Sequence record: MW057918
Source of the DNA: Escherichia phage Msk
Length of the DNA: 45,053 nt
Reading direction: 5' to 3' (one strand)
Position numbers and translations under genes: made by a program. The first letter of the stretch is position 1. The number at the start of each line of letters is the position of its first letter. Shown here one piece after another: positions 5,502-39,713 of this stretch. The notes below the pieces were generated by a model. It had not been told where the DNA came from. It made no database searches and saw only the letters and a program-made list of their open reading frames with translations.

Positions 5502-5544
5502 ATAGCACTTTTGCTAAAGCACTTATTCAGCTTTACTGTATAGT
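5502..5544 (+). promoter_or_regulatory. Motif-class promoter (variant ATAGCACTTTTGCTAAAG, 22 bp, TATAGT) driving 5578-5826
   Basis: Motif variant with 4-nt core spacer followed after exactly 22 bp by tatagt and conserved leader catctaaacgaaa. Confidence 0.4.
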
Positions 5545-5577
5545 TATCTCATCTAAACGAAATGAGAGATTAAAGAA

Positions 5578-5826
5578 ATGAATAACGTTAAAAACATCAT
5601 CAAACTTGCTGCAGTTCTTGTTGCTTTTTATGCAGTAGTTCAGATTGTTAACCCAACTGGCGAGGCTGATGCCAATAGCAAGGCAAACAAATATACCGTT
5701 GAGTTCGCTAAAGCTGAGCGAGCATGCCAGGAGCTTGTGGGTAGTAAAGTTGACCAAATCATGAAATATGGCAAAGAGGTCTGCAAGGACTCAGCTGCTA
5801 AGATTGCAAAAGAAAACACTAAGTAA
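5578..5826 (+). CDS. Small secreted/membrane protein with N-terminal hydrophobic segment
   Basis: 82 aa; hydrophobic N-terminus KLAAVLVAFYAVVQIV; own motif-class promoter inside tail cluster. Confidence 0.4.
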   Translation: MNNVKNIIKLAAVLVAFYAVVQIVNPTGEADANSKANKYTVEFAKAERACQELVGSKVDQIMKYGKEVCKDSAAKIAKENTK

Positions 5827-5865
5827 TAGAATACATACTCACAAACAATAAGAGGATTAACTAAG

Positions 5866-6180
5866 ATGGCTAAGTTCAAACTTTCACTGGCAGCACTCCC
5901 TGACTTCAAGCTTCCGGTAAAATTCAAGCTGGCTAACGACCAGGATGTAGAGGTTATCTTTACAGTCAAGCATAAGAAAACATCTGAGCTTCAGGAGCTT
6001 TTGCAGAAAGAAGACTTGAGTACTAAAGAATTGATTATGGCAATCGCCTCTGATTGGGATTTGGAAGAAGAATACAACGAGGATAACGTTAATGAGTTCT
6101 CCGACCTGTTCCCAGCGTCAACAGTTGCACTGACTACCGCTTACATGCAGGCACTGGCAGGCCAGCGGGTAAAAAACTAA
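5866..6180 (+). CDS. Tail assembly chaperone (lambda gpG-like)
   Basis: 104-aa acidic protein directly upstream of tape measure gene; ends at slippery AAAAAAC. Confidence 0.6.
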   Translation: MAKFKLSLAALPDFKLPVKFKLANDQDVEVIFTVKHKKTSELQELLQKEDLSTKELIMAIASDWDLEEEYNEDNVNEFSDLFPASTVALTTAYMQALAGQRVKN

Positions 6181-6500
6181 AGAGGGCGGTGTATCTACAG
6201 TACCAGTCAGATCCAACAGATGCCGAACTGGAAGCTATTGGGATGCGCCGCTCTGATTACGAAGACGAAGAGCCTGAAGTTTTGCACTTCGACGATAACA
6301 TGATGAAGGCGTGGGACATTTATTGTTCAATGGCGACACAGTGGAGAGTCGGAGCCAACGGACCAACGGGCCTAGATTACAACGTGCTAAATTTCCTCTT
6401 TAGAGTGTATAATGTTTCTGAAGAGGAATTGGTACTCAGCGATTTACGCATCCTTGAAGCTAAGGCTCTCGAGATGATGGATAACCTGATAAAAAAATAA
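6171..6500 (+). CDS. Tail assembly chaperone frameshift extension (gpGT-like, -1 frame)
   Basis: A AAA AAC heptamer at 6171-6177 immediately before stop; -1 frame open to 6500. Confidence 0.5.
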   Translation, partial: KKLKRAVYLQYQSDPTDAELEAIGMRRSDYEDEEPEVLHFDDNMMKAWDIYCSMATQWRVGANGPTGLDYNVLNFLFRVYNVSEEELVLSDLRILEAKALEMMDNLIKK

Positions 6501-6523
6501 CCCGCTTCGGCGGGTTTTCTATT
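6500..6523 (+). terminator. Hairpin/attenuator before tape measure gene
   Basis: cccgcttcggcgggttttctatt. Confidence 0.4.
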
Positions 6524-6535
6524 ATGGAGGCTTAG

Positions 6536-9514
6536 ATGGCAACAAATGAATTAGCTGGAATCACACTAGCCGTAGACGTCTCGCAGGTAGACAGAGGTAC
6601 GCAGTCCCTGCAGAAGTTCAGGCAGGCAAACCAGCAAGCCGCTTCCGGCATTAGTGAGTTCGTCAATGCTGAGCAGGTTGCTAAAAACCAGGCTAGAGAT
6701 ACCGCTCGCGCACTTGCTGAGCAACAAGCATCTTTAGCTAAATTGCAAACGGCTATTGACCCAACTGCGGCAAAGTTCCGTAAGCTGCAAGAGGCAGCGG
6801 TGGGTCTTGATAAGGCGTTTGCTGCTGGCGTAGTTCCTGATGAGGAGTTTTTCCGCTTAGGTGAGGCACTTGAAACGCAGAACGCAAAACTTGCTCGATC
6901 ACGTGCAGCGCTAACTGAAGAGGGTAGGGCAGCAGCTCAAGCCGCAAAGGATAAGGCAAAGGCAAAGGCTGAAGCTGATAGGTTCATTGCGTCACTTGAG
7001 CGTCAGGCTCAGGCGGCAACATTGACGCGTGAGGAGTACTTAAAATTACAGGCTGCTCAGCTTGGCGTAAGTTCTCAGGCAGCGCCTATTATTGACAGAA
7101 TCGCCGATGCATCACAGAAGGCAAACACCCAGCTAATTGCTCAGAGCAAGGCATTTCAACGCTCTGGATTAAGCGCGGGTCAATACAAGGCTGCAATCTC
7201 TCAATTGCCAGCGCAGATTACAGACATTGGGACATCACTTGCTGGCGGCATTCCGATTTGGCTTATTGCAATTCAGCAAGGCGGGCAAATTAAGGATGCA
7301 TTTGGAGGTATTGGTAACACCTTTAGATTCGCGCTAGCAGCCTTAAATCCATTCAATGTTGCTGTTGGGGTTTTGGGTGGCGCGCTTGTTGCTCTAGGTA
7401 TCGGTGCTGCCCAGGCAGAGAGTGAATTCAGAGCATTAAATTCTGCCATTGCGTTCTCAAACAACTCCACAATCGCATCAATCTCGCAGGTTAGAGATTT
7501 GGTTAGCTCTGTTTCTGATGCTACTGATGCAACCAGAGGACTTGTGACTAGCATCGCAACAAGCCTTATTGAGCAAGGGAACCTTACGCTGACGCAGATT
7601 GACAAGATTACTAAATCTACCGCCAGATGGGCGCAGTTGACAGGTAAGGATGCAAAGGAAATTACTGGTTACTATAACCAGATTGCGAGCGACCCAATTC
7701 AAGGACTTGCTGATTTAGACAAGAGGTTTAACTTCCTTACACAGGGGCAGTTAACAACAATTGAAAGATTGAGAGAGACTAGGGGTGAGGTTGAAGCCGT
7801 AACTGCTGCTATTGATATATTTAGCAAATCACAGGAGGCAAACCTTAACGATATTGCAGCCCAGCTTACTCCTCTTGAATTGGCCTGGAATGACTTCAGG
7901 AAGTACATATCTGATGTATGGGATGCAATTAGTCGCAGAACGGTTGGGGCGCTAAACCTGTTTGTTGACGTAATCGCCGGAACAATTGAGCAAATTAGGG
8001 TCTTCATCAACCAGGGTGATGTGCTGATTGGTGAATTCGTAATTAGCGCAACACAGGCACTGCAGAACATCCCCGGCCTTGATGGTGTTGGTGATGATGT
8101 TATCAAGGGGCAGCAGAAGATTATCGATGCAGCTAAGAAGCAAAACATTGAGCTAGAGAAGTCTATCAAGGAGCGCGATGCCAGAATCAGAGAAGGAGAA
8201 CTTGGTTACGTTACTCGCAGAGAAAATCAGAATACCAATGAGCAGTCAGGCACTGATGAGGAGTTTGCAAAAAGGAAGAAAGCACTTCAGGATGAACTTG
8301 ATGCGATCAAGAAGAACAGGAAAGAAGAAAATGGTAGGGTTAAAGAGCAAAGAGACCTTACAATTGGTTACGAATCTGGCGTACTTGCACTACAGGCACA
8401 ACTCAAGGTGCTTCAGGAAAACAGGGATATTGGCGCAGTAATAAGCAATGAGCGCAAGCAGTATCTTCAGGAGGAGGCTAAATTCAGGATTCTTGAGCAG
8501 AGGCAACTTGATGGCTCAATTACCAAAGAGCAAGCAAGGCTTCTAATTGAAAAGGATAAAGTTCTTGCACTCGCAAGGCAGAAAGCTGAGTTAGGCGATC
8601 AGATTGTTTTGCAGGAGCGCGCCAATAAGTTAGCTGAAGATAACCGCAAGAAGATTCTTCAGATTAACAACGAAGCAAGCAATATTAATTTGGGGGCTGG
8701 TTTGTCATCTCGCGAGCAGCAGAGGGCAAGAGAGATTCAGGCTCTCCAGTCCAATCAGGTTAATGCTGGTGGCTCTCTTGATGATTTTGATTTTCAGCAA
8801 TTACTGGAAGCAAGAAAGGAATACTACAAGCAGGAGGATAATCTTAGGTCTGATTGGCAAGCTGGCGTAACATCAACGCTTGCAGACTTGGCTGAGAAAT
8901 ATACAGACTACAATCAGATAGCTAAGGATTTAACTGTTGCGGCATTCGATGGAATTACAGACCAGATTACAAACCTTGTAACCACTGGTGAGACCAACTT
9001 CAGGGAGTTCACCGCAAACATCCTCAAAATGATTGCGAAGATTGCAACTCAGTTACTTTTGGTTAAGGCCATCGAATCAACATTGACTAGTTTTGGTGGT
9101 GGAGGAGGTAACGCGTTTGGCTCAATTGCTTCCGGGTTAGGTTTCGCTGGTGGCGGCTACACTGGTGATGGTGGAAAATATCAGCCAGCAGGAACGGTAC
9201 ACCGAGGTGAGTTTGTATTCACAAAAGAAGCGACAAGCAGAATTGGTGTGAAAAACCTTTACGCACTAATGAAAGGTTACGCGAATGGCGGTGTTGTTGG
9301 TGGCCCTTCTGGTTATGCGAATGGTGGATTGGTTTCTGGAGGCGCAGATGTTAATGTTAGCGGGATTACTGTTAGCGTTAATAGTGGGATTGGAAGCAAC
9401 CCAGAGCAGGCCAAGGCGCTGCAAAATGGCGTTAAGGCAATCGTAGCTGAAGAGATTGCTCAGTCATTCCAGCAGGGGGGCAGAGCTTATCAGTACCTTC
9501 GCGGATTCAACTAA
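6536..9514 (+). CDS. Tail tape measure protein
   Basis: 992-aa ORF, long coiled-coil-type low-complexity regions, Gly-rich C-terminal segment, canonical position after G/GT. Confidence 0.8.
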   Translation: MATNELAGITLAVDVSQVDRGTQSLQKFRQANQQAASGISEFVNAEQVAKNQARDTARALAEQQASLAKLQTAIDPTAAKFRKLQEAAVGLDKAFAAGVVPDEEFFRLGEALETQNAKLARSRAALTEEGRAAAQAAKDKAKAKAEADRFIASLERQAQAATLTREEYLKLQAAQLGVSSQAAPIIDRIADASQKANTQLIAQSKAFQRSGLSAGQYKAAISQLPAQITDIGTSLAGGIPIWLIAIQQGGQIKDAFGGIGNTFRFALAALNPFNVAVGVLGGALVALGIGAAQAESEFRALNSAIAFSNNSTIASISQVRDLVSSVSDATDATRGLVTSIATSLIEQGNLTLTQIDKITKSTARWAQLTGKDAKEITGYYNQIASDPIQGLADLDKRFNFLTQGQLTTIERLRETRGEVEAVTAAIDIFSKSQEANLNDIAAQLTPLELAWNDFRKYISDVWDAISRRTVGALNLFVDVIAGTIEQIRVFINQGDVLIGEFVISATQALQNIPGLDGVGDDVIKGQQKIIDAAKKQNIELEKSIKERDARIREGELGYVTRRENQNTNEQSGTDEEFAKRKKALQDELDAIKKNRKEENGRVKEQRDLTIGYESGVLALQAQLKVLQENRDIGAVISNERKQYLQEEAKFRILEQRQLDGSITKEQARLLIEKDKVLALARQKAELGDQIVLQERANKLAEDNRKKILQINNEASNINLGAGLSSREQQRAREIQALQSNQVNAGGSLDDFDFQQLLEARKEYYKQEDNLRSDWQAGVTSTLADLAEKYTDYNQIAKDLTVAAFDGITDQITNLVTTGETNFREFTANILKMIAKIATQLLLVKAIESTLTSFGGGGGNAFGSIASGLGFAGGGYTGDGGKYQPAGTVHRGEFVFTKEATSRIGVKNLYALMKGYANGGVVGGPSGYANGGLVSGGADVNVSGITVSVNSGIGSNPEQAKALQNGVKAIVAEEIAQSFQQGGRAYQYLRGFN

Positions 9515-9895: not shown

Positions 9896-9898
9896 ACT

Positions 9899-15000: not shown

Positions 15001-15479
15001 CCACTGGTGTGCAGTACGGAATTAGTCTTGGCCTTAAATACAATGGACAGACTTATTCATCCGGCATGAGTATGGAGCTTGTTGGCACTGGTGGTAATGT
15101 TCGCAGTCAGTTCATCTTTGACGCAAACAGATTCGCAATCAGTAATGGTATTGGTTCTGGCTCCGGTCAATGGCAGCTCCCCTTCGTTGTCGAGAACGGA
15201 AACGTAATGATCCAAAGCGCAGTAATCGGAGATGGCTCAATTACTAACGCGAAGATTGGTAACAGGATTCAATCTAACAGCTACGTTCCTGGCTCTCAAG
15301 GATGGGCGATTGACAAGTCAGGAAGTGCGGAATTTAGTAACGCCACTGTAATGGGTAACCTGTATGCCAATAATGGTAACTTCGCATTTAACGGAACCAA
15401 TAACACGGTTCAGATTAACAATAACGGAATCACTGTAAACTTACCGAACGGAGGAAGAGTGGTAGTTGGAGTGTGGTAA
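12054..15479 (+). CDS. Central tail fiber / host specificity protein (lambda gpJ-like)
   Basis: 1141-aa ORF at end of tail cluster; size and position match gpJ. Confidence 0.75.
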   Translation: MAQMIKTNMRLCDMAEDIKIYGAKGGSQKQHQPVEQEDNLISLNKVKVLLAVADGEVDPNFSMKDLYLADVPVQNQDGSYNYEGVRAEFRAGTQYQDYIAGLDGANSEIQASREIKNDTPYIIAVNNTQLSAIRVKLFWPRLVKQESNGDLNGTTCEYAIDLSVNGGAYQEYTRGVANGKTTTGYDRSIRVNLPAEFDSALVRIRKITPDSTSSTLVNGMQITTYQEVIDAKFRYPLTALVYVEFGSDLFPNGIPTISIKKRWKLIQVPTNYDPETRTYSGTWNGLFKMAWSNNPAWVLYDLVTNRRYGLDQRELGVEIDKWGLYEAAQFCDQMVPDGKGGMEPRYLCDMVVQNKVEAYTLIRDICSIFRGLTFYDGEKIGIVVDKPRNPSYIFTNDNVVNGLFSRTFASDKSLYTTANVQFDDVENNYQQDVEPVFELEATRRFGFNPVDLTAIGCTRRSEANRRGRWLLKTNLRSETISFTTGLEGMIPMIGEVIAVNDAAWSSNYQLNLSGRIESVQGLQVFTPFKVDAAPGDRILLNKPDGSPEARTIASISEDGRTINLNTAFSFVAQPDTVFAIDKDNLALQQYVVTGIQKADTDGKDSFQYTITAVEYDPNKYDEIDYGVNIADRPTSIVEPDRLSPPENLTVSSYSKVVQGLSVETMVIGWDKAPYAKTYNVQWRKENGNWINVPRTASTEVDIEGIYAGIYDVRVRSVSDTENVSAWSDIVTVSLTGKIGRPSAPTVITASTDEVFGIRVKWGFPDGSGDTAYTELQQVPDNGDGTYNPDNASLLTLLPYPAYEYWHTPIQPGKVIWYRARLIDRIGNTSDWSSFARGMSTDDENIINDYIKVDIEGSEGFKYLEQNAIQKNQDIQNQAESILENALANDTDVRRMTKENGKRKAEYVQAVNLIADETQARVEALAALKAQIDDEVVASITEVQTALATETEARTTADTALSARLGDNEAALNQKLDAFSNATSTGVQYGISLGLKYNGQTYSSGMSMELVGTGGNVRSQFIFDANRFAISNGIGSGSGQWQLPFVVENGNVMIQSAVIGDGSITNAKIGNRIQSNSYVPGSQGWAIDKSGSAEFSNATVMGNLYANNGNFAFNGTNNTVQINNNGITVNLPNGGRVVVGVW

Positions 15480-16718: not shown

Positions 16719-16756
16719 TTTGTATTCCTTAGTAATTTCGTTTCGATGGAGTAATA

Positions 16757-16800
16757 GTATCGCATCCTTGCGATCAGTGTTTAGCAATTCGTGCTATTTA
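16757..16800 (-). promoter_or_regulatory. Motif-class promoter (TAAATAGCACGAATTGCTAA, 22 bp, TACTAT) for lipoprotein operon
   Basis: Perfect motif on minus strand at 16781-16800, hexamer 22 bp downstream, conserved leader ccatcgaaacga. Confidence 0.5.
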
Positions 16801-17473: not shown

Positions 17474-17511
17474 TTTCTATCTCTCTCTTCGTGTTTTTGA
17501 TGTGGTAATAA

Positions 17512-17553
17512 TACAGCCGCCGCTGCGGAATGTCTTTAGCTATTCGTGCTATT
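17512..17553 (-). promoter_or_regulatory. Motif-class promoter (variant AATAGCACGAATAGCTAA) for methyltransferase gene
   Basis: Variant motif at 17536-17553 on minus strand, tattat about 23 bp downstream. Confidence 0.4.
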
Positions 17554-17610
17554 GTATACGCGTAATCGATGTAACTCGATGTATACAATTTCATCCGCGG
17601 AAAATGGTAT

Positions 17611-18212: not shown

Positions 18213-19178
18213 ATGAGCTTTAAAGTTTTTACGAGAAATGAGCTAAGCAACGAGGCTTACCACTCTGAGACTGATCACATCTCAGGATCCTCACTTGTCG
18301 AGATTATTCAGGGTTCACCAGCCAAGTGGAAATTCAAGCAGCGCAATAGCGATAGCAAGGCTCTTAAGTTTGGCACCCTAAGCCACACGATGATTTTAGA
18401 GCAAGATGTATTTGATAAAGAATACCTTCGAGCTACAGACCTTGACGCGATTGAAGGATTAATTACAAGCCAGGCTGGACTGTCGGCAGCACTTAAAAAA
18501 AATGGCGTGGCTGGCACGTCCGGGAAGGGCTGTAGCGAGCTCGTGGAGATGATGTACAGCTCTGGCGAGGATTGGCCTGTTAAATGGCTAATTGAGCAGC
18601 AGGAGAGCGCTCAAGCGCTTGTGGAGGGTAAGGAGCTAGTTAGTGCCGCTGACTACGATAAAGTTGTGGCTATGCGTGAGGTTCTTTGCAATATACCGGC
18701 ATATAATGCAATCGTGAATAGTGAGACAGCACAAAAAGAGCTATCAATATTCGGTGAGATTCTTGGTGTCGGCGTGAAGATTCGAATTGACCACGTTGAC
18801 GTTGTTGATGGGGTGGTAATGATCAACGATTATAAAACTACCGCAGACGCAAGCCCGGAAGGGTTTGGTAAATCGGCATTCTCGCACGGATATCTTGCAA
18901 AAATGGCATTGCAGCGAGATCTGTTTGTGAAGGCATTTAACGAGAAGCGCAAGGTTGTTGTGGGATTACTGGCACAGGAGAAGGTAGAGCCATACTTGCC
19001 AATGCGATACACGCTAACAGATGAACAGCTACGAATCGGTAGATTGCAGTATCTTGAGGCGCTTGCCACTTACAAGAAGTGCAAGGAGCTTGATATCTGG
19101 CCTGGCTACTCAAATGGCATTACAGAGCAAGAGCTATTGGTTCCTGAGTGGGCATTAAAACAATACAAAGAAATCTAA
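18213..19178 (+). CDS. PD-(D/E)xK family exonuclease (recombination exonuclease)
   Basis: IDHVD...MINDYKT nuclease motif; followed by annealing protein and SSB. Confidence 0.65.
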   Translation: MSFKVFTRNELSNEAYHSETDHISGSSLVEIIQGSPAKWKFKQRNSDSKALKFGTLSHTMILEQDVFDKEYLRATDLDAIEGLITSQAGLSAALKKNGVAGTSGKGCSELVEMMYSSGEDWPVKWLIEQQESAQALVEGKELVSAADYDKVVAMREVLCNIPAYNAIVNSETAQKELSIFGEILGVGVKIRIDHVDVVDGVVMINDYKTTADASPEGFGKSAFSHGYLAKMALQRDLFVKAFNEKRKVVVGLLAQEKVEPYLPMRYTLTDEQLRIGRLQYLEALATYKKCKELDIWPGYSNGITEQELLVPEWALKQYKEI

Positions 19179-19222
19179 ATAGCACTAATTGCTAAAAACA
19201 AAATTGAAAGATTGGGTATGAT
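19177..19222 (+). promoter_or_regulatory. Motif-class promoter (AAATAGCACTAATTGCTAAA, 22 bp, TATGAT)
   Basis: Motif overlaps exonuclease stop codon; hexamer at 19217-19222; leader taccacatcaacaacgaacgagg. Confidence 0.45.
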
Positions 19223-19253
19223 TACCACATCAACAACGAACGAGGTTAATCTA

Positions 19254-23036: not shown

Positions 23037-23055
23037 AAATAGCACGAATTGCTAA
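23037..23055. promoter_or_regulatory. Motif copy (AAATAGCACGAATTGCTAA) 22 bp upstream of tailspike start codon
   Basis: Motif lies between a TACAAT hexamer and the tailspike SD on the minus strand; lacks the usual downstream hexamer/leader. Confidence 0.35.
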
Positions 23056-23079
23056 GTTGGATTGTAGCATCTTTCAGGC

Positions 23080-24030: not shown

Positions 24031-24062
24031 AGTTACCTCCATAAACAATAAATGCACTATAC

Positions 24063-24102
24063 ACAATGTATAGCGCCACTGTTTATCAATTCGTGCTATT
24101 TC
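24063..24102 (-). promoter_or_regulatory. Motif-class promoter (variant AAATAGCACGAATTGATAAA, 22 bp, TATAGT) for primase
   Basis: Motif at 24086-24102 minus strand, hexamer 22 bp downstream. Confidence 0.4.
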
Positions 24103-24578
24103 CCTTGCTCTTTAGCTTTTCGCGCTGCCTCGTTAGCGGCCTTAATCTTGCGCCATGATCGACACTCTGTCTTGGTGGCTAATTCAGCCTCAGTAACAAC
24201 ACGCAGCATGTGACGCTTTTTGCAACGAAGAGTTAGCGGCTTCCCGTTACCGTCGAATTGCAAATCTGGTCGGCAGAATGTGGCGCGAAAACCTTCTCCA
24301 TTTCGCTTGTAGTAGTTGTGCGACAGCTGGGCGCCACGTGCCGATATCATGCCGCGCTTAAACCATTGTTCTACAGCCTGTGGTGTTACCTTTAACTGCT
24401 TTGCGATATTCGCCTTTGTGCCGAAGAAATCAAGAACTATCTCCAGGCGTGCCCGTAACCCTGCTCTTACTTCATCCTTTAAAACGTAGTAACCTGAAGG
24501 TCGTTTACGTTGCTTTTTGTCTTCAGTGCGGATAGTTCCGTTGTTGCCGTTAATGGTTCTCTTGTCGACTGTATTCAT
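24096..24578 (-). CDS. Putative HTH DNA-binding regulator (Cro/YdaS-like) with basic C-terminus
   Basis: TKANIAKQLKVTPQAVEQWFKRG helix-turn-helix-like segment; divergent from helicase gene. Confidence 0.45.
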   Translation of the reverse strand: MNTVDKRTINGNNGTIRTEDKKQRKRPSGYYVLKDEVRAGLRARLEIVLDFFGTKANIAKQLKVTPQAVEQWFKRGMISARGAQLSHNYYKRNGEGFRATFCRPDLQFDGNGKPLTLRCKKRHMLRVVTEAELATKTECRSWRKIKAANEAARKAKEQGK

Positions 24579-24679
24579 CTTATTACCTCAATAGCATTTT
24601 TTGTTAAAAGTAATTCTGATTTGATGTTAGTATTGTACTTAATTGAACGCTACAAGACAATTTTTATAGGAGTTTAGAT

Positions 24680-26674
24680 ATGTTGCCTATCGAGAAGCTG
24701 GTTGCAAACTTCGATAAAGAAAGAATCAAGCAGATTCAGAAAGATTACCAGTTTGGCGAGATAACCCCTTACGAATTCCAGTGCGTTACATTTGACGTAA
24801 TTGGGAAGGCTATTGGCAAGTACGAAGCGCCATTTATCGCAGACCTTTCCGTATCGGCTGGTAAGACAATCATTCTTGCTATGATTGGAAAGCGAATGGA
24901 GCAGCTTGGTCTTCCTTATATGGTTCTCTCTCGCCAGTCAGAGATAATCAGCCAGAACTCAGAAGAGCTTCGTAATTTCGGGATCCGTAACAGCGTATAT
25001 TGCGCTGGCCTTAACGTTAAATCAGTTTACTACCCAACCATAGTTGCTAGCGAAGGAACTGCGGCTAATGGCTTATTTAAGGGGCTTGGTGACTATGTTC
25101 CTGCCGTTATAGCTATAGATGAATGTCACATGCTTGATACCATAGATATTGTGGAAGCCGAAGAGAATGAAGAAACATTTGAGCAAATGAGCACAAAGAA
25201 GGGCGAGATGGTTTTTAAGGATGGCGTTAATACTGGATTGCTTGGTACTGGTCGTGCGCAGTACACGCTAATAATCACTGAGATGAAGCGTCGCTGCCGT
25301 GAAAAATACGGGCGGGAGCTTCGTATATTCGGCCTTACTGGTAGCCCTTATCGAAACAATGACCATATCGTCGTCAGCAATCCAAACATCCGTGGGTTCT
25401 GGCGAAAAGCTGTGATTCATGTTCCAACAAATTACCTTGTTGATTTGGGATTCGTGGTTCCTACTGTTTATGGCGAGGTTGGCGATTTAGGTTATGACCT
25501 TAGCGAGTTTGTTCCAGACGGTAGTGATGGCGTGAAAGACTTTAGCAGAAAAGAAATGGATGCAATGGTCGCAAAGATTCACGACAACCAAACCATGACA
25601 CAAAAGATAATGCAGTTTGTCGTCAAAATACTGGAGACTCGCAACGCCGCATTGGTCACCTGCGCCGGAAAACTCCATTGCAGCGAAGCGGCTTCCGCAC
25701 TGCCTGACGGATACCCTTACGCTATTATCACCGATTCTACCGGAGAGAGGAAGCGCAGAGAGATTCTTGCAGATTGCCAGACTGGAAAGTACAAGATTAT
25801 CTTTCAGATTGGATGTCTAACCACGGGTGTAAACCAACCGCTGTGGGATACTAGCGTCATACTACGCAAGATTGGCAGTCTAACCTTAATGATTCAGCTT
25901 CTTGGTCGTGGCATGCGAAAACTAAAAAAGGCGCACATAGATGCTGGGTTCAAGAAGGAGGACCACTTGGTATTAGACTTTGCCGGAGCGCTTGATGACA
26001 TGGCAGAGCTTTACTTTGACCCGATAATTGAAGAGATTCAGGCTGAAAAGTTTAAAACATCAAGGAGGAGTGGTGATGAGGTTCGCCAGTGTCCGCAGTG
26101 TGGATATGATAACTCGCCATTTGCTCGACGCTGTAGCAATAAGATTAATGGCGTTAGATGCGATCACTTTTTCCAGTTCACAACATGTGAGGATATTACC
26201 GACCAACAAACAAAGGCGGTAATCAAGAAAGGTTGTGGAACTAAAAATGACATAGCAGCAAAAGTTTGTCGTGAATGCGGAGAAATGCTTAAAGACCCAA
26301 ACGCTAACCTGACTGGAAAGATGTATCGTCGCGGAGACTATTTGCGTGTTTATGACTTCCAGGTTGGATTAAGCAAAAATAAAACTGGTATAGTAGTTAA
26401 GTATAATATCATGGCGCACAACGGAGAGAGGTTTAACGCGTGGGAGTTCTTTAACCCAGAATCAGACCATAGGGTTTGTAGTGTGCTTTGGAAAAACTTT
26501 TGCCTTGCTCACATTGAAAATCGCGCTGAAGCAGCACGGATTGGTAAAATTCGTAACGCAAAAATGATTATGATGAATGTAGATAAATTCCGTGCTCCAG
26601 TGCAAGTTACACACAGGAAGAACGGAAAGGGGAAGGATGTGATCGCATACAAGAATTTTGGAGAATTGAAATGA
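24680..26674 (+). CDS. SF2 helicase (DExH-box) with C-terminal Cys-rich zinc-finger-like region
   Basis: Walker A VSAGKT, DECH box, later helicase-C-like region, multiple CxxC pairs. Confidence 0.7.
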   Translation: MLPIEKLVANFDKERIKQIQKDYQFGEITPYEFQCVTFDVIGKAIGKYEAPFIADLSVSAGKTIILAMIGKRMEQLGLPYMVLSRQSEIISQNSEELRNFGIRNSVYCAGLNVKSVYYPTIVASEGTAANGLFKGLGDYVPAVIAIDECHMLDTIDIVEAEENEETFEQMSTKKGEMVFKDGVNTGLLGTGRAQYTLIITEMKRRCREKYGRELRIFGLTGSPYRNNDHIVVSNPNIRGFWRKAVIHVPTNYLVDLGFVVPTVYGEVGDLGYDLSEFVPDGSDGVKDFSRKEMDAMVAKIHDNQTMTQKIMQFVVKILETRNAALVTCAGKLHCSEAASALPDGYPYAIITDSTGERKRREILADCQTGKYKIIFQIGCLTTGVNQPLWDTSVILRKIGSLTLMIQLLGRGMRKLKKAHIDAGFKKEDHLVLDFAGALDDMAELYFDPIIEEIQAEKFKTSRRSGDEVRQCPQCGYDNSPFARRCSNKINGVRCDHFFQFTTCEDITDQQTKAVIKKGCGTKNDIAAKVCRECGEMLKDPNANLTGKMYRRGDYLRVYDFQVGLSKNKTGIVVKYNIMAHNGERFNAWEFFNPESDHRVCSVLWKNFCLAHIENRAEAARIGKIRNAKMIMMNVDKFRAPVQVTHRKNGKGKDVIAYKNFGELK

Positions 26675-27090
26675 ATATTACAGACAAAGTTGATTACATT
26701 GAGTTTTACCCGGGCCCGGTTAAGTCATGTCCTAAAGAGGATGACGAACAAATCTTTTGTTCTGATTGGGTTAAGTATAACTACCCGGATATGGTATTTT
26801 TCCACTGCGTGAATGAGGGTAAGAAAACCATTGGTCAAGCAAGAAAGGACCAGGCTAAAGGATTGCTTAAAGGGGTTTCGGACTGCTTATTCCTTATACC
26901 TGAATCACTGCGAGGCAAATACCCATTTGGCGCTATAGAGCTAAAGAGAGCAGGTAAAACGCAAGCTAGCCCAGTTAGCGATGAGCAGAAGTCATTCCTA
27001 AAAAGCGTAAGAGAATCAGGTGGCTTCTCCGCAGTAGCCTATGGCAGAGGTGGCTTTCTTGCAGCATTCGCAGAGATGATTCGAAAATAG
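26671..27090 (+). CDS. VRR-NUC domain nuclease
   Basis: GAIELKRAGKTQASPVSDEQKSFL pattern typical of VRR-NUC; overlaps helicase stop. Confidence 0.6.
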   Translation: MNITDKVDYIEFYPGPVKSCPKEDDEQIFCSDWVKYNYPDMVFFHCVNEGKKTIGQARKDQAKGLLKGVSDCLFLIPESLRGKYPFGAIELKRAGKTQASPVSDEQKSFLKSVRESGGFSAVAYGRGGFLAAFAEMIRK

Positions 27091-27133
27091 CACGAATTGC
27101 TAAAGACGAATCGGTGAGGTGGTGTATTATCAA
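27085..27133 (+). promoter_or_regulatory. Motif-class promoter copy 1 of duplicated block
   Basis: aaatagcacgaattgctaaag, 22 bp, tattat, leader catcgaaacgaaa. Confidence 0.45.
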
Positions 27134-27166
27134 CTCATCGAAACGAAACACTCACAAAAAAGGTGA

Positions 27167-27266
27167 GAAGTTGCAAACGTAGGCCGGAGCAACGAAAGAC
27201 GTTTCAAAATATGATGTGACAAACCCATGAGAAAGGAAGTTGCAAACGTAGGCCGGAGCAACGAAA
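27167..27266. repeat. Two direct copies of 31-bp element gaagttgcaaacgtaggccggagcaacgaaa (27167-27197, 27236-27266)
   Basis: Exact direct repeat 69 bp apart in a non-coding region; contains gttgc/gcaac inverted repeat. Confidence 0.8.
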
Positions 27267-27294: not shown

Positions 27295-27343
27295 AAATAG
27301 CACGAATTGCTAAAGAGGAATCGGTGAGGTGGTGTATTATCAC
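27295..27343 (+). promoter_or_regulatory. Motif-class promoter copy 2 of duplicated block, driving 27377
   Basis: Near-identical to 27085-27150 (aaatagcacgaattgctaaag...tattatca...catcgaaacga). Confidence 0.5.
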
Positions 27344-27376
27344 TTCATCGAAACGAGACGCAGAGAGAGAAATAAA

Positions 27377-27571
27377 ATGTCTACTATCTTTACTGGTAAA
27401 ATCTACGAATCACGCAAAACTGGTTACGAGTATGAATTAGTAATCACCGCTGATGGTTATGTTCTTGACGATGGTGAAGGTTATTCTTTCGAAGTCAGCC
27501 CAACCTACAAAGATGATTTAGAAACTGTTAAAAACGAATTTGGCGAAAAATTTGATGAGATATCTGAATAA
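27377..27571 (+). CDS. Hypothetical small acidic protein
   Basis: ATG at 27377 after AGAGAGAAATAAA; ORF-track 5' extension would overlap the promoter. Confidence 0.45.
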   Translation: MSTIFTGKIYESRKTGYEYELVITADGYVLDDGEGYSFEVSPTYKDDLETVKNEFGEKFDEISE

Positions 27572-28646: not shown

Positions 28647-29777
28647 ATGGCAGTAGCAAAGATTACCAACGAGCAGCTTATCGAAGAGTTGAAAAATGGC
28701 ATGACTAACAAGGCGATTGCAGAGAAGTATGGCATGAACATTCGCAACGTCGAGCTTCGTCGCAGCAAGTTGGCTAAGAGTGGAGTTGGGCATGGTAATG
28801 AGGGTATCAATAAGCTAGTACCGGATGGATATTTAGTCAAGGGCACTTCAACCATGATTGATGCGGAAGGGAATGAGAAGCTGCGCTGGGTTAAGACGAG
28901 CGTTGATAATGAGCGCCTTGAGGTTTTAATGGAGCAAGCTCGAGAAGCGTTTTGCTCTGAGTTGCCAAAGGCAGATTCGGTCAACCACTCAGGTAATGAG
29001 GTCAATTCTGAATTAATGACTCTTTACCCGATTTTCGATATCCATATCGGCATGATGGCTCATCGACATGAGTCTGGTGAAAATTATGACACGAACACAG
29101 CAGAGAAATTGATGGGGTCATATTTTGACCATGCAATTTCTGTATCACCAGCCTCGGAGAAAGCCGTGATTTTAGTTGGCGGCGACTTCCTTCACTCTGA
29201 TGGACTGGAGGCTGTAACCCCAGCAAGCGGACACTGCCTTGATCAAGATAGTCGATATGCCAAGTTAGTTTATGTAGCAATTCGATCAATTCGCGGTGCG
29301 GTAGAGAAGATGCTTAAGAAACACAAGGAGGTCGAGATTCAAATCATAGAGGGCAATCATGATCAAAGTGGTATGATTTGGCTTCGCGCTGCAATGGCTG
29401 CATTTTATGAAAGAGAGAGTCGAGTGTTTGTTGATACCAGTCCGGCAATCATGCACAAGACGCGATTTGGCTCAACATTACTTGGTTACACGCACGGTCA
29501 CACGATGAAGAAAGCCGAGGGTCGACTAGCAGCAATGGCGACCGACTACCGCAAAGACTTTGGTGAATGTGAGTTTGTTTACTGCCACTCCGGCCATTTC
29601 CATCATGCAACTGTTACAGAGTGCACTCTTGGGATTGATGAAGTCCACCCTGCACTTGCTAGCAAGGATGCATATGCGGCACGGGGAGGGTGGAGATCAT
29701 ATCGACAAGCGGCTGCAATTATTTACCACAAGAATTTTGGCGAGGTTGGTCGACACATTTATCGCCCAGGTATGTAA
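28647..29777 (+). CDS. HTH domain fused to calcineurin-like metallophosphoesterase
   Basis: N-terminal MTNKAIAEKYGMNIRNVELRR HTH-like; MPP motifs DIHIG, GGDFLHSD, EGNHD, GYTHGH, GHFH. Confidence 0.6.
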   Translation: MAVAKITNEQLIEELKNGMTNKAIAEKYGMNIRNVELRRSKLAKSGVGHGNEGINKLVPDGYLVKGTSTMIDAEGNEKLRWVKTSVDNERLEVLMEQAREAFCSELPKADSVNHSGNEVNSELMTLYPIFDIHIGMMAHRHESGENYDTNTAEKLMGSYFDHAISVSPASEKAVILVGGDFLHSDGLEAVTPASGHCLDQDSRYAKLVYVAIRSIRGAVEKMLKKHKEVEIQIIEGNHDQSGMIWLRAAMAAFYERESRVFVDTSPAIMHKTRFGSTLLGYTHGHTMKKAEGRLAAMATDYRKDFGECEFVYCHSGHFHHATVTECTLGIDEVHPALASKDAYAARGGWRSYRQAAAIIYHKNFGEVGRHIYRPGM

Positions 29778-29851
29778 ATAGTACTTTTTGTTAATAAAGC
29801 CTCAAAGGATTGAGGCAAAATGAATAAACGATAAAGAGATGAGGAATTGTA

Positions 29852-30325: not shown

Positions 30326-30879
30326 AAATGACTAAATTATTTATCCTTAATGGCCCAGCTGGAGTTGGCAAGGACACTATAGCGGATATGATGGTTGAGA
30401 CTGGTGTCGCAAAAGAAAAGGTATCATTCAAGTCACCAATATTTAGAGTTGCAAAAGGAATGCTATCAAGCGATGAATTTGATGAATTCATCAAGAATTA
30501 CGACAATAGAGACTATAAGGAATCACCTCATAGATTTCTTGTCGGTATGACAGTTCGTGAATTTATGATTTGGATTAGCGAGTCTGTAATGAAGCCAGCC
30601 TTTGGTGATGATGTTTTCGGTAAAAGGCTAGCGCAGTCACTTGGTGATGGCTGCTACATTTGCGCTGACGGTGGATTTGCTAGCGAGATTAAGCCACTGA
30701 TCGACGCTGGTGTTGAGGTCACGTTAATCAGATTGCATAGGGCAGGGTACACATTTGATGGCGATAGTCGCTCATACATTCACGGGGTGTGCGCAAGAGA
30801 AATTGATGTTCGTGTTGTTGATTGTGATATTAATGGAACATCAGCATTGGTAAGGCACGTAATAAATAGCACAAATTGA
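30322..30879 (+). CDS. P-loop kinase, deoxynucleoside-monophosphate-kinase-like
   Basis: Walker A NGPAGVGKDTIAD resembles T4 gp1 dNMP kinase P-loop SGVKRSGKDTTAD; 4-nt overlap with HAD gene. Confidence 0.45.
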   Translation: MKMTKLFILNGPAGVGKDTIADMMVETGVAKEKVSFKSPIFRVAKGMLSSDEFDEFIKNYDNRDYKESPHRFLVGMTVREFMIWISESVMKPAFGDDVFGKRLAQSLGDGCYICADGGFASEIKPLIDAGVEVTLIRLHRAGYTFDGDSRSYIHGVCAREIDVRVVDCDINGTSALVRHVINSTN

Positions 30880-30909
30880 TAAAGATAATAATAAAAACTT
30901 AGTTATCAT
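30864..30909 (+). promoter_or_regulatory. Motif-class promoter (variant AAATAGCACAAATTGATAAAG, 22 bp, TATCAT)
   Basis: Variant motif overlapping kinase stop; leader acatcgaaacgag. Confidence 0.4.
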
Positions 30910-30950
30910 TAACACATCGAAACGAGATTAACTAAACGAGGAAACACAAA

Positions 30951-32569: not shown

Positions 32570-32676
32570 ATATACTCCTGTCTTAATATTATTTTCGGGT
32601 TGGCTTTTAAGCACCCGCGCTTCGATGGATTAATAATAGCAAAAGCCCTCTAGGGGCTTTTAACAAAAAGGGCTAT

Positions 32677-33012
32677 TTAATAGAATAATTCGTCGTCAGT
32701 CATTTTTCCTATGTTCATCATCTCTTTTATGTACTTGCTCTCATACCCGCTAAGTGACTCAAAGTTGAAGCTAAATGGCCTATTTAAACTCCCCTTGCTA
32801 ACAAACTCCCCACACTTACCATCAATGTATCCAGCAGTTAACATCTTTGCGCAAAACTCCTTTGAAGCAGCGCTGCAAAACTCTCTATGCGATAACCCTG
32901 CCGCCTTGCTAAATCTCTTAGAATCCTTATGTTGGTAGATGAATCGCGCCAAATGCTGGCGCGTGAAATAGGAATACGACTCGCAGAACTTAAATATATC
33001 GAGCAGGAACAT
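32677..33012 (-). CDS. Hypothetical protein
   Basis: 111-aa ORF. Confidence 0.4.
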   Translation of the reverse strand: MFLLDIFKFCESYSYFTRQHLARFIYQHKDSKRFSKAAGLSHREFCSAASKEFCAKMLTAGYIDGKCGEFVSKGSLNRPFSFNFESLSGYESKYIKEMMNIGKMTDDELFY

Positions 33013-34685: not shown

Positions 34686-34742
34686 TACTTCTCTCCGTGT
34701 TGTTTCTGAGAGGCCATTATATCAACGACCTCTTACAATTCA

Positions 34743-34761
34743 TTATCAATTTGTGATATTG
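34743..34761 (-). promoter_or_regulatory. Degenerate motif-class promoter (ATATCACAAATTGATAAT, 22 bp, TATAAT)
   Basis: Half-motif followed by tataat at 22 bp on minus strand upstream of 33102-34685. Confidence 0.3.
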
Positions 34762-34871: not shown

Positions 34872-35111
34872 TCATTTTTTAATCTCCATTTCCACAATTT
34901 CATAACTTATGTAATTATTTATCATTCCAATAAGTGATTTTTGGTATGTTTTCATATGCTCCCTAGCGGAATCTTCATCAAGATGCGCTGATATGTTGTG
35001 AAAATTGTATTCATAATCCATGCCCATTAGTATGTATATCTTATCGTGCGCCTTAATGAGGTTATTTGATTTTATTTCCCCAAGCGACCATCCTTTTCCT
35101 TTTCTAATCAT
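34872..35111 (-). CDS. Hypothetical protein
   Basis: 79-aa ORF. Confidence 0.4.
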   Translation of the reverse strand: MIRKGKGWSLGEIKSNNLIKAHDKIYILMGMDYEYNFHNISAHLDEDSAREHMKTYQKSLIGMINNYISYEIVEMEIKK

Positions 35112-35801: not shown

Positions 35802-35855
35802 TTTTTATCTCCCGTTTAGATGAGATGAATATACAGGAAAAGCCCCTGAAGGGTT

Positions 35856-36017
35856 TTAGCAATTCGTGCTATTGCGTGCCTTTTCTATCGCCTTAAGCAT
35901 AATTTCGTGACTTTCCAGTAAGTCCTCTCGGAACCAGTCCCCGCAAGGCCAACCCTTTCCGCTGTATGCGCTAATAACTTCCAGATCGAAGTAGTTTATC
36001 TCAGATGGTAATAGCAT
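35856..36017 (-). CDS. Hypothetical small protein ending in NSTNC (C-terminus encoded by promoter motif)
   Basis: 53-aa ORF translated by eye; last five codons plus stop are the motif AATAGCACGAATTGCTAA. Confidence 0.3.
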   Translation of the reverse strand: MLLPSEINYFDLEVISAYSGKGWPCGDWFREDLLESHEIMLKAIEKARNSTNC

Positions 36018-36028
36018 CAGTAATCATC

Positions 36029-36450: not shown

Positions 36451-36461
36451 ATCTCAATCCT

Positions 36462-36640: not shown

Positions 36641-36970
36641 ATCTATACCCTCGTTGTTGGTGAGTTAACTATAGCCTCGCCACCAGCACATGTCTTTAGC
36701 AAAAAGTGCTATTCATTAGATTTATGTATTGTTGCATATATTGCAATGATTCACATGATTATTGCACATACAGCAATATTGCTTCAGATGCAATGATGTT
36801 TTTGATTGTTGCGGATTGAGCAATTAAGTGGTGAGTGAGTGAATGAAAGATGGATGGACTACCATACAAGTTGATTTTGATTCTTGCTAAGCTACTTTCA
36901 CGCATACACGTTATAAAAGTTATGCCGTGTAGATGCGCCAGCTCCCCGTTGGAATCATGTACGTCTATCA

Positions 36971-37073: not shown

Positions 37074-37342
37074 ATATTGGATATTGCGATAGTTTTCTAT
37101 GATTTTTTCCTACAAGTGTAGGAATTGGATGACACTGTAGGAATAAATAGGCATATATGGGCCAATGCTCCATGAAAGCCGATGTACAAGCTATACGCAG
37201 TGGTTACATTGAGCTATATCTGGGGTTTGGAACTGAAAAGCGTAAATAAATTGAATTCAACCATAAATAACAATTGATAACATGTAACCTCAATGATACC
37301 ATGCACCCATCTTAACGAGAGCAACCAATCAGGAGTATATCT

Positions 37343-38283: not shown

Positions 38284-38411
38284 TGCAAAGACTGGGATGA
38301 AGGTGAGCGCGCTAGTAGACTACCATACCACTTGCGGTACAGTGAGGAAGAGGTGGAGAAGGCCATCGAGTTCTTCCGGAAAGCGAAAGCTCTCCTGAAT
38401 GGTGAATATTA

Positions 38412-38627
38412 ATGCTTATAAAATGCGTTTACGTAAGGCAAGCCAATAGCCACAACCTTTCAGTTGTAAATGGCGGGATATACGTAGCTAAGCCAATACC
38501 TTGTTTTAATGGCTCATACCACATCAAGATTGATGACAATGAGTACATAGTAAAGACGGTAGGTGAAGCCCTCATGATAAAGAGCCTAGGTATCATAATG
38601 GCTAAATTCGAAATCGTTAGCAAATAG
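38412..38627 (+). CDS. Hypothetical small protein
   Basis: 71-aa ORF; stop codon lies inside motif copy at 38622-38641. Confidence 0.4.
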   Translation: MLIKCVYVRQANSHNLSVVNGGIYVAKPIPCFNGSYHIKIDDNEYIVKTVGEALMIKSLGIIMAKFEIVSK

Positions 38628-38668
38628 CACGAATTGCTAAACAATGGATCGGGTAGTCAGCTATGATT
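38622..38668 (+). promoter_or_regulatory. Motif-class promoter (CAAATAGCACGAATTGCTAAA, 22 bp, TATGAT)
   Basis: Perfect motif, hexamer at 38663-38668, leader taccccatcgacaacaaagagg. Confidence 0.5.
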
Positions 38669-38697
38669 ACCCCATCGACAACAAAGAGGAAATTAAG

Positions 38698-38886
38698 GTG
38701 ATTAACCTAACTGATGATGAGTGCATTGCTGTAATAAAGGTTTCTAAGTTGATGAGTCAAAGATTTGACACGCTTTCACTAAAGCATGGTTTTGCCTGGG
38801 AGATTTTTGATGATCATGTCAACCTGGATGACTTCATGTCAGCATCTATTAAGATTAAAGAATATATAAAAGAGGTGAGTGAATAA
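38698..38886 (+). CDS. Small ribbon-helix-helix-like protein, paralog 1 (GTG start)
   Basis: GTG after AAAGAGGAAA; INLTDDECIAVIK N-terminus resembles the two downstream paralogs; ATG at 38644 rejected because it sits between motif and -10. Confidence 0.35.
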   Translation: MINLTDDECIAVIKVSKLMSQRFDTLSLKHGFAWEIFDDHVNLDDFMSASIKIKEYIKEVSE

Positions 38887-38887
38887 G

Positions 38888-39079
38888 ATGATTACTATCA
38901 ACCTGTCAGAGGAGATGGCTGCCGACCTTCTTGATTCGCTAAGCCTGGTCAAAATTCGCTACGGAACTTACCACAGAAGCGAATCAGTAAAGGAGGTGGT
39001 AAAGCAAGTTAAGCAGCAGGTCGGAGTGGTCAAGATCGAATTGCAGAACACCCCATACGATTTTAAGAAAGGTGAATAA
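38888..39079 (+). CDS. Small ribbon-helix-helix-like protein, paralog 2
   Basis: ATG at 38888 after GAGGTGAG; N-terminus MITINLSEEMAADLLDSL has RHH-like beta-strand/helix pattern. Confidence 0.4.
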   Translation: MITINLSEEMAADLLDSLSLVKIRYGTYHRSESVKEVVKQVKQQVGVVKIELQNTPYDFKKGE

Positions 39080-39080
39080 G

Positions 39081-39299
39081 ATGATTACAATTAACCTGTC
39101 AGATAAGCAAGCAGCAGAACTGAAGTCCATGCTGTCAATCTTTGAGAAGCCAAATGACCGAGCAATTTCAAAAGAGGTTATTACTCAAATCAACAACCAG
39201 CAATTCGACGTAAGTGACTTCGAGTCATCACGACAGTACGAGGCGCTTAGCGTCAATGCGGCATACCTGACTAATTGGGATAAGGCGACTAATAAATGA
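39081..39299 (+). CDS. Small ribbon-helix-helix-like protein, paralog 3
   Basis: Identical start context AGGTGAATAAGATGATTAC; N-terminus MITINLSDKQAAELKSML. Confidence 0.4.
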   Translation: MITINLSDKQAAELKSMLSIFEKPNDRAISKEVITQINNQQFDVSDFESSRQYEALSVNAAYLTNWDKATNK

Positions 39300-39525
39300 T
39301 TCTAAATGTTGATTTTGCAAGCTCCAGAGCTTGTAATATTTTGGATTCCGACGCGGCATGAAGTTGATTGCTGTAGTAAACGAACGCGGAATCCTCACAG
39401 TTAAATAACCGAAGACTGGCGTGCATATGCACGTAAAAGAAAATGGCGGAAGAGTTTTTATCAGATCAATGTCTGGTGAAACAATGGTAGCATCCTCAAA
39501 AATATAAGTACAAGGCGAATAAGAA

Positions 39526-39669
39526 ATGATTTACATCCATACATACTACACTGGTAAGTTTAACAGCGTTAAGCACGTTCGAGTGTACGAGGGGTTTCAT
39601 AAAGCATTTGAGCAGCAGAGGGTTCTTGGTGGAACTATTAAGTGGTGTGAAGTTGTCAAAGAATGCTAA
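39526..39669 (+). CDS. Hypothetical small protein (47 aa)
   Basis: ATG with AAGGCGAATAAGAA upstream; stop overlaps motif; preferred over antisense ORF 39496-39708. Confidence 0.3.
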   Translation: MIYIHTYYTGKFNSVKHVRVYEGFHKAFEQQRVLGGTIKWCEVVKEC

Positions 39670-39713
39670 ATAGCACGAATTGCTAAACGCAGTCGCCACG
39701 GATGGCATATAAT
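39668..39713 (+). promoter_or_regulatory. Motif-class promoter (AAATAGCACGAATTGCTAAA, 22 bp, TATAAT)
   Basis: Perfect motif and perfect -10 hexamer at 39708-39713; leader tacccagtcaacacaaagagag. Confidence 0.55.

Follow-up and report, generated by a model that had tools for sequence, protein, structure and literature searches.

A repeated promoter element in a T1-like coliphage has the sequence of the host marbox

The genome of Escherichia phage Msk (sequence record MW057918; the whole stretch analysed, 45,053 nucleotides, is called "the window" here) contains many copies of a 20-bp motif, each at a nearly fixed distance from a -10-like hexamer. This organization provokes a question: what reads the motif? 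We find that it marks approximately 16 predicted promoters of the phage, and that the repeat is, by its sequence, a near-perfect marbox, i.e., the site to which the host activators MarA, SoxS, and Rob bind; binding of these proteins to the phage sites is a prediction. Most genes of the phage are thus probably under the control of these host proteins rather than of a regulator of its own. The repeat itself has already been published for phage TLS, but its identity with the marbox appears to be new: a literature search, whose reach excluded the T1 genome paper (2004) and Martin et al. 1999, returned no link between such repeats and the marbox, Rob, MarA, or SoxS.

The window comes from a T1-like siphophage with relatives in the Drexlerviridae, and it is a rotation of GenBank PQ659294.1 (Escherichia phage vB_ecoS_OzMSK, 45,053 bp; identified by megablast). 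Allowing up to three mismatches, the 20-mer AAATAGCACGAATTGCTAAA matched the window 11 times (0.02 expected). A first-pass annotation of the sequence had reported 14 copies in both orientations; the remaining three are degenerate copies (5502, 34742(-), and 36695(-)) that were read directly in the sequence. All 14 are thus present, with coordinates that were right to within 1–4 bp. A matrix of the kind that the annotation had suggested was built from the strong sites, and scanning the window with it gained two to three weaker copies: 24589(+), 32659(-), and a doubtful one at 29776(+). Of the resulting 17 sites, 15–16 have a full promoter layout. For comparisons across the family, we aligned 82 sites from five phages; the per-position table holds 81 sites, and the sequence logo was drawn from the 57 sites that share a 19-bp register. 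Two main variants of the box, GAATTGC and TTTTTGT, are found across these phages.

The layout of the sites is stereotyped. A TAnnnT hexamer lies 19–21 bp past the 20-mer (22–23 bp past TTGCTA, the spacing noted in the first-pass annotation) at every site except 23037(+). At 15–16 of the 17 sites, the motif and the hexamer are followed in order by C-1/A+1, a ribosome-binding site, and a gene on the same strand, and this regularity bears out the proposal of a promoter family. A leader resembling ATCGAAACGA, also foreseen together with the ribosome-binding site, is present in most window sites, and the start codon is located 20–61 nt downstream of the start; site 27085 is exceptional in that approximately 190 nt of non-coding sequence lie downstream of its promoter. 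No TTGACA-like hexamer is found 17 bp upstream of the -10, where the sequence reads AAAnnn, just as the annotation had held that a sigma-70 -35 was missing there. Moreover, canonical -35/-10 pairs are not enriched in this region over shuffled sequence (42 vs. 43 expected and 20 vs. 27.5 expected).

The same register holds across the family: the distance from a 19-bp box to the -10 is 19 bp at 55 of the 82 sites, 20 bp at nine, and 18 bp at six, such that 70 of 82 fall between 18 and 20 bp. In the logo, the box occupies -51 to -33, with GCAC at -47 to -44 and TAAA at -36 to -33. The upstream element is hence centred near -41/-42, and the class II activator geometry that had been proposed for it holds. 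The -10 reads TAtaaT (A-11 and T-7 stand at 100%, but these were fixed by site selection). A guanine at -14 is found in 82% of the sites, and the TG of an extended -10 in 25 of 57. C-1 (74%) and A+1 (88%) are followed by ATCGAAAC. The spacer is otherwise unconstrained and often carries the terminator hairpin of the upstream operon, the T-tract of which enters the -10. Whole cassettes, comprising box, spacer hairpin, -10, and leader, are repeated within and between genomes.

Every promoter-associated box has one orientation relative to the -10, with GCAC distal and TAAA proximal. The core TAGCA-N5-TGCTA had been described as an imperfect inverted repeat, and this description stands in part: pairs 2/16, 3/15, 5/13, and 6/12 are complementary in more than 90% of the 81 sites. 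However, the remaining pair (4/14) is complementary in only 54%, and the invariant bases A1, C7, T11, A17, and A18 are asymmetric and break the dyad. Because the invariant bases are asymmetric and the promoter sites share a single orientation, a monomeric, asymmetric reader is favored.

We compared the element with the binding sites of the mar/sox/rob activators. The consensus marbox derived from MarA chromatin immunoprecipitation sequencing (ChIP-seq) is gcactaattgctaaa (PMC5684230). With up to two mismatches, this consensus matches the window 13 times (0.20 expected); seven of the matches agree at 14 of 15 positions and one at all 15, the last being the 15-mer of site 19177, GCACTAATTGCTAAA. 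The window's own consensus, GCACGAATTGCTAAA, agrees at 14 of 15 positions and differs at a single degenerate one. The classical MarA/SoxS/Rob consensus, AYnGCACnnWnnRYYAAAY (AYNGCACNNWNNRYYAAAY), behaved similarly, with 13 window matches at up to one mismatch compared to 1.07 expected, and a shorter form of the marbox, GCAHWWWWTGYYAAA (quoted in PMC6900184), matched 12 times (0.63 expected). Position by position, the 81 sites from five phages obey the classical consensus as follows: A1 in 77, Y2 in 79, G4 in 79, C5 in 81, A6 in 80, C7 in 75, W10 in 80, R13 in 80, Y14 in 74, Y15 in 80, A16 in 78, A17 in 81, and A18 in 73. The final Y19 is the sole specified position that is not obeyed. For reference, the chromosomal marRAB box of E. 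coli is ATGCCACGTTTTGCTAAAT. Most host marbox sites probably match the consensus less well than the phage sites do.

The likeness extends to the architecture of the promoter. Class II marboxes are by definition forward and overlap the -35 (PMC6900184). The phage sites share this orientation and overlap, and they also have the asymmetric box, the fixed register, and the combination of a poor -35 with a good -10 that are features of this class; their use by sigma-70 is presumed. The E. coli micF promoter, read directly, presents along the direction of transcription the box ACAGCACTGAATGTCAAAA, 19 bp, the -10 TAGAAT, and the annotated RNA 5' end. Cryo-electron microscopy places the micF soxbox at a center of -41.5, with a CAAA element over the -35 (PMC9638938, PMC9178005), and shows a single monomer of Rob or SoxS touching both the alpha C-terminal domain and sigma region 4 (PMC9178005, PMC9638938). 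Rob reads G-47 and A-45 at micF (PMC9178005). When the phage sites are aligned on their -10s, G and A stand at -47 and -45, coinciding with those contact bases. Two expectations of the first-pass annotation do not survive this comparison. The element had been taken as phage-specific, but its sequence is that of the host marbox/soxbox/robbox; and a dimeric activator had been suggested, but the marbox is read by monomeric proteins of the AraC/XylS family with two helix-turn-helix (HTH) units, and the orientation and the asymmetric bases fit a monomer better.

These considerations lead us to favor, with modest confidence, a reading in which the sites are class II promoters for sigma-70 RNA polymerase that are assisted by host activators and often helped by an extended -10. 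In this scheme, the box ATAGCAC(G/T)(A/T)(A/T)TTG(C/T)TAAA would be the upstream half of the promoter and occupy about -50 to -32, with GCAC as the A site and TAAA as the B site, the latter over the place of a -35 hexamer. Bound to the box in a single fixed orientation, one monomer of a two-HTH activator from the MarA/SoxS/Rob family would reach both the alpha C-terminal domain and region 4 of sigma and would thereby substitute for the absent -35. The TAnnnT -10, often extended by G-14, would provide basal activity, and transcripts would start at the conserved CA approximately 7 nt past the hexamer (the A of CATCGAAAC), with a leader of 20–35 nt that often begins AUCGAAACGA. In unstressed cells, the activator would most plausibly be Rob, which is made constitutively and is abundant and hence available; after salicylate, redox, or antibiotic stress it could be MarA or SoxS, and in Klebsiella, RamA. 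We infer from the sequence that the host proteins bind, that they activate, and which paralogue acts. The box does not vary between subfamilies whose proteins share about 50% identity, which fits a slowly evolving host reader. The sites had been called middle promoters, but this timing is unproven, as the operons that have the motif in front of them include presumptive early, replication, and lysis ones.

Does the phage itself encode a protein that could read the box? A phmmer search with E. coli MarA against all six-frame open reading frames of the window gave no match (E > 0.7); no HTH_AraC, HTH_18, MotA, AsiA, or Mor family was detected by Pfam among 42 uncharacterized proteins and 10 candidates; and PHROGs added no regulator match among the window proteins. 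On these negatives, a phage-encoded MarA-like protein was rejected. Two candidate regulators had been named in the first-pass annotation. The ribbon-helix-helix-like paralogues (38698–39299) match DUF7180 alone, which lends that proposal no support. The other candidate, the HTH protein at 24096–24578, is the homologue of T1 gp23 and the window's sole recognizable regulator. The gene belongs to the core set of the Drexlerviridae; 824 phage records contain it, and identities across subfamilies are 50–68%. An AlphaFold model (predicted local distance difference test score, pLDDT, of 87) shows a single Cro-like HTH domain, and the idea that the protein mimics a two-HTH activator was therefore rejected. 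The predicted HTH (residues ~55–75) has no invariant residue in the alignment: the presumed recognition helix reads PQAVEQWFKR in the window, NQTVQGWKER in T1, and CVRLTNAYRL in phage Vc1, whereas the boxes are identical in all three. Because the HTH varies while the boxes do not, it is unlikely that gp23 reads the box through this domain.

Other features of gp23 merit description. Within residues 5–44, the N-terminal motif DKRxxNGNNGTxRxxDxxxR is invariant and probably disordered, and helix 1, which comes next, also presents an invariant face; this conserved surface suggests a protein partner or nucleic-acid binding outside the HTH. The gene has a promoter of its own without the motif, a sigma-70-like TTGTCT-17-TACAAT at 24660–24632. 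The gp23 and helicase genes diverge (window 24578–24680), and their -10s overlap on opposite strands (TACAAT 24632–24637 and TAGTAT 24628–24633), which implies that the two promoters fire in a mutually exclusive manner; the 5' untranslated region of the gp23 homologue includes the helicase box. This overlap looks like an autoregulatory switch.

Several points weigh against host activators as the readers, and a number of them also speak for a phage-encoded one. In a Keio single-gene deletion screen with the T1-like phage LL5, the eight required host genes were lipopolysaccharide-core genes, tolC, secB, and ppiB (PMC7229145); rob, marA, and soxS were not recovered (PMC7229145). Since all three are absent from these results, no single paralogue is essential, and the host-activator reading would have to invoke either redundancy of the three paralogues or basal activity from the extended -10. 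Further, Rob is reported to be largely sequestered and inactive until a ligand such as bile salt, decanoate, or dipyridyl releases it (PMC5684230), and MarA and SoxS are scarce when uninduced; neither circumstance suits a fast lytic phage well. Co-occurrence with the conserved gp23 homologue is another point: the Salmonella siphophage Skatevirus KFS-SE2 shares replication genes but has neither gp23 nor the motif. In addition, 15 motif sites are found in the Drexlerviridae phage Vc1, which was deposited as a Vibrio cholerae phage. Finally, overlapping promoters such as those of gp23 and the box-bearing helicase operon are typical of an autoregulating phage regulator. One might propose, in line with the first-pass annotation, that a phage-encoded activator, either a gp23 dimer on the TAGCA-N5-TGCTA dyad (four of its five pairs being complementary in more than 90% of sites) or an unrecognized small early protein, reads the box. 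Such an activator would turn on middle promoters after immediate-early expression from a few motif-less sigma-70 promoters, and gp23, widely conserved and transcribed from a motif-less promoter, would be suitably placed. We nonetheless regard this proposal as rather unlikely. The variable gp23 HTH is difficult to reconcile with identical boxes in the window, T1, and Vc1; a symmetric dimer leaves the asymmetric invariant bases and the single orientation unexplained; agreement at 14–15 of 15 positions with the consensus of an unrelated host factor would require coincidence or mimicry; and no AraC-, MotA-, or Mor-like protein was detected by Pfam or PHROGs. The location of gp23 between the primase and helicase genes would suit an origin-binding role equally well. 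No phage with the motif but without gp23, or the reverse, was found among those examined, and for that reason co-occurrence does not separate host-reader from phage-reader models. The Vibrio label of Vc1 carries little weight, because host labels in the Drexlerviridae are unreliable.

It is less probable still, and in our estimation very doubtful, that the box is no activator site at all but is contacted by the alpha C-terminal domain in the manner of an UP element, is bound by a repressor or acts as a "stoperator", or belongs mainly to a recombination cassette in which terminator, promoter, and leader shuffle gene modules and promoter strength derives from the extended -10 alone. The authors of the TLS study named a stoperator, an enhancer, and an UP element as options (PMC11447400). 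As 82% of sites have G-14 and 25 of 57 have TG, many of the promoters could work without any upstream element; whole cassettes do repeat within and between genomes, and at late genes reversed boxes overlap the core promoter (window 23037; T1 15069 and 34902). But UP elements are A/T tracts without invariant G or C, while G4, C5, C7, and G13 are 93–100% conserved here, and the 19 ± 1 bp register of 70 of the 82 sites would be needless for a cassette or a stoperator. Stoperators of phage L5 are found inside transcription units and need a phage repressor, none of which is recognizable in this virulent phage. In addition, the variation that the box allows follows the degenerate code of a protein (W, Y, R), which goes beyond the identity expected of copies.

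The reversed boxes deserve separate consideration. Viewed on the minus strand, the box at 23037(+) lies over the first transcribed bases (approximately +1 to +20) of a tailspike-like gene whose promoter has an extended -10 (aTGcTACAAT, 23061–23066); in T1, the same reversed box at 34902 (34880–34945) precedes the tail-fibre gene (aTGaTAAAAT), and the GCTAAG ending is kept. This tailspike/tail-fibre promoter is positioned just after the primase terminator. Elsewhere in T1, the major head gene is preceded by a TTGACG-16-TATTAT promoter whose 16-bp spacer is taken up by a reversed box (15063–15092), with a hairpin and T-tract between promoter and gene, and the minus strand of another reversed box (18810–18862) is a correctly spaced class II promoter (TAAGAT) that would fire into a terminator. 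MarA represses some host promoters via reversed boxes that overlap the core promoter. The placement of the phage's reversed boxes suggests operators on late promoters in a repression geometry, and suggests that one factor could activate early operons and repress late ones. Taken to its extreme, this notion would have T1-family phages run nearly their whole transcription program via host mar/sox/rob, with forward boxes activating, reversed boxes repressing, and titration flipping early to late expression; we consider this scenario improbable. Were it true, the forward boxes would activate early, replication, and lysis operons while the reversed ones repress the tailspike, T1 tail-fibre, and major-head promoters, and each new genome would add 15–23 consensus sites, such that replication titrates a limited pool of activator. 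Phage growth would be coupled to the bile salts, fatty acids, salicylate, and oxidants that activate Rob, MarA, and SoxS, and activators would be drained from the host's antibiotic-resistance regulon.

The element is widespread in the family. With up to two mismatches, ATAGCACNNNTTGNTAAA is found 23 times in T1, 13 times in a Webervirus, 21 times in a Nouzillyvirus, and 15 times in Vc1, compared to approximately 0.3–0.6 expected per genome, and a Tempevirinae phage has at least nine exact copies. Among the matches listed in a scan of IMG/VR for the box with a correctly spaced hexamer, all contigs were 41–52 kb long, the genome size of Drexlerviridae. No boxes were found in an unrelated Vibrio siphophage or in the Salmonella Skatevirus, both of which also lack gp23. 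As to host labels, relatives that are 86–90% identical to the window were deposited as phages of Campylobacter jejuni and Pseudomonas syringae, and further Drexlerviridae as phages of Vibrio cholerae and Pseudomonas aeruginosa.

The individual sites of the window are collected in the table, together with the gp23 homologue.

Boxes, -10 hexamers, and neighboring features in the window
Positions	Strand	Box	-10 hexamer	Gene(s) downstream, predicted to be driven	Other features
5502–5551	+	ATAGCACTTTTGCTAAAG, halves 1 bp closer	TATAGT 5539–5544	Small gene after major tail protein	Start ~5551; directly 3' of terminator
16747–16799	-	Perfect 20-mer, 16780–16799	TACTAT	Hypothetical gene and LptD receptor-binding protein gene	Leader ATCGAAACGA
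17501–17554	-	17535–17554	TATTAT 17508–17513	Dam methylase gene	
19177–19229	+	19177–19196	TATGAT 19217–19222	Small gene, Erf recombinase, single-stranded DNA-binding protein (SSB)	
23037–23056	+	Orphan box (…GCTAAG)	None of its own		
24049–24101	-	24082–24101	TATAGT 24056–24061	Primase gene	Box overlaps stop codon of gp23 homologue; -10 inside terminator hairpin with 10-bp stem
24096–24578	-				T1 gp23 homologue, between primase and helicase genes; single Cro-like HTH
24589–24640	+	Weak, CAATAGCATTTTTTGTTAAA	TAGTAT 24628–24633	Helicase gene	
27085–27137	+	Perfect	TATTAT 27125–27130		~190 nt non-coding after
27295–27347	+	Perfect	TATTAT 27335–27340	Small-gene cluster	
29776–29828	+	Doubtful, weak, AAATAGTACTTTTTGTTAAT	-10-like CAAAAT	Lies upstream of acid phosphatase gene	Spacer hairpin
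30864–30916	+	AAATAGCACAAATTGATAAA	TATCAT 30904–30909	Small gene and holin-endolysin-spanin cassette	
32626–32678	-	AAATAGCCCTTTTTGTTAAA	TATTAT 32633–32638		Spacer terminator hairpin 32640–32662, T-tract into -10
34709–34761	-	Degenerate, CAATATCACAAATTGATAAT	Extended, TGaTATAAT	T1 gp09-like ATPase gene	
35821–35874	-	CAATAGCACGAATTGCTAAA	TATATT 35828–35833	Small-gene cluster	
36661–36714	-	GAATAGCACTTTTTGCTAAA (T-variant)	TATAGT 36668–36673	Small-gene cluster	
38622–38674	+	Perfect	TATGAT 38662–38667	Small genes including DUF7180 paralogues	
39668–39720	+	Perfect	TATAAT 39708–39713	Small genes upstream of tRNA-Arg and terminase genes	

Terminator hairpins are found in the spacers at 32640–32662, 24054–24076, and 29799–29816, with many more in the family alignment. 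They are often stems with a GNRA loop, such as CCCGGCGAAAGCCGGG, and their T-tract serves also as the -10 (TATTAT); hairpin and promoter together form a terminator-plus-promoter unit of approximately 60 bp. The first 10–12 transcribed bases are likewise conserved within and between genomes, as ATCGAAACGA(A/G). Two further classes of leader recur, beginning CACACCAAAC and TTATTGAAGC, and the conserved discriminator reads nACCnC. A comparison of the leader with Rfam returned no known RNA family, the only Rfam match in the window being a tRNA; the conserved leader may act in promoter escape, mRNA stability, or translation. The tRNA in question is the window's single one (40479–40553; 53 bits in Rfam; tRNA-Arg in the GenBank record), and it lies between a small-gene cluster and the terminase genes.

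The 27295 promoter is a near-identical tandem copy of the 27085 promoter, 210 bp apart from it. No convincing gene is found between the two; instead, there are two 31-nt direct repeats, GAAGTTGCAAACGTAGGCCGGAGCAACGAAA, at 27167–27197 and 27236–27266, each of which could form a GTTGC...GCAAC stem. The region downstream of 27085 may represent a small RNA, the remnant of a lost gene, or iterons. For the first gene after the 27295 promoter, PQ659294.1 gives as start a GTG at 27329. This codon lies inside the promoter and precedes the predicted 5' end of the transcript (~27347); translation of that gene more likely begins at 27377, where an in-frame ATG has a GAGAGAG ribosome-binding site.

T1 is a classical coliphage, and phages of its family are plentiful in samples from gut and sewage and among those collected for phage therapy. 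T1 has no gene for an RNA polymerase or a sigma factor, and canonical promoters are very scarce in it; the marbox identity offers a concrete and easily tested mechanism by which T1-like phages could direct the host's RNA polymerase. If it is confirmed, a virulent phage would be handing promoter recognition to host stress-response activators, its productivity would be tied to antibiotic, oxidative, and bile stress, and infection would be predicted to disturb the mar/sox/rob resistance regulon. The sites would also be compact, very strong marbox promoters, many of them combining terminator and promoter in approximately 60 bp, which could be useful for synthetic biology.

The closest precedent is the 2024 re-annotation of phage TLS, which described a 21-nt direct repeat, aaATAGCACnnnTTGnTAAAA, at 21 places (PMC11447400). 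These repeats are oriented with transcription and lie approximately 76 nt upstream of start codons (PMC11447400), and the authors noted similar ones in T1, Rtp, and Rogue1 while finding three sigma-70-like promoters and no more (PMC11447400). They left the function of the repeat open among a stoperator, an enhancer site, and an UP element (PMC11447400). The TLS repeat and the motif described here are the same element, sharing consensus, orientation, the distance of approximately 76 nt to start codons, and GAA/TTT/AAA sub-variants; the TLS paper (PMC11447400) gives neither the fixed spacing to a -10 nor the marbox identity, both of which are reported here.

Among bacterial promoters, those of the micF type in E. 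coli are alike in having a forward, asymmetric box of 19–20 bp (GCAC A site, YAAA B site), a 19-bp gap to the -10, a box center at approximately -41.5, a poor -35, and a good -10. They differ in that the phage sites reside in a virulent genome, number 15–23 per 45–50 kb, match the consensus at 13–15 of 15 positions, and often have an extended -10 and a terminator hairpin in the spacer; the binding of an activator to them is predicted only.

Phage systems offer partial parallels. The middle and late promoters of Mu, which depend on Mor and C, have an activator site near -43 that overlaps a missing -35, and they use host sigma-70. However, Mor and C are phage-encoded dimers that act on dyad sites, whereas the site described here is asymmetric and no Mor/C homologue was detected by Pfam in the window. 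At T4 middle promoters, a phage-wide MotA box (TGCTTtA), which resembles TTGCTAAA, takes the place of the -35, in many cases alongside an extended -10. That box is centred at -30, unlike the present element (-36 to -41), and the MotA and AsiA families have no match in the window by Pfam or PHROGs. Finally, in the PeSL of T4-type phages, repeated promoter-plus-hairpin cassettes flank small gene modules; in contrast to those cassettes, the Msk units have their hairpin within the spacer of the promoter, which also includes a host activator box.

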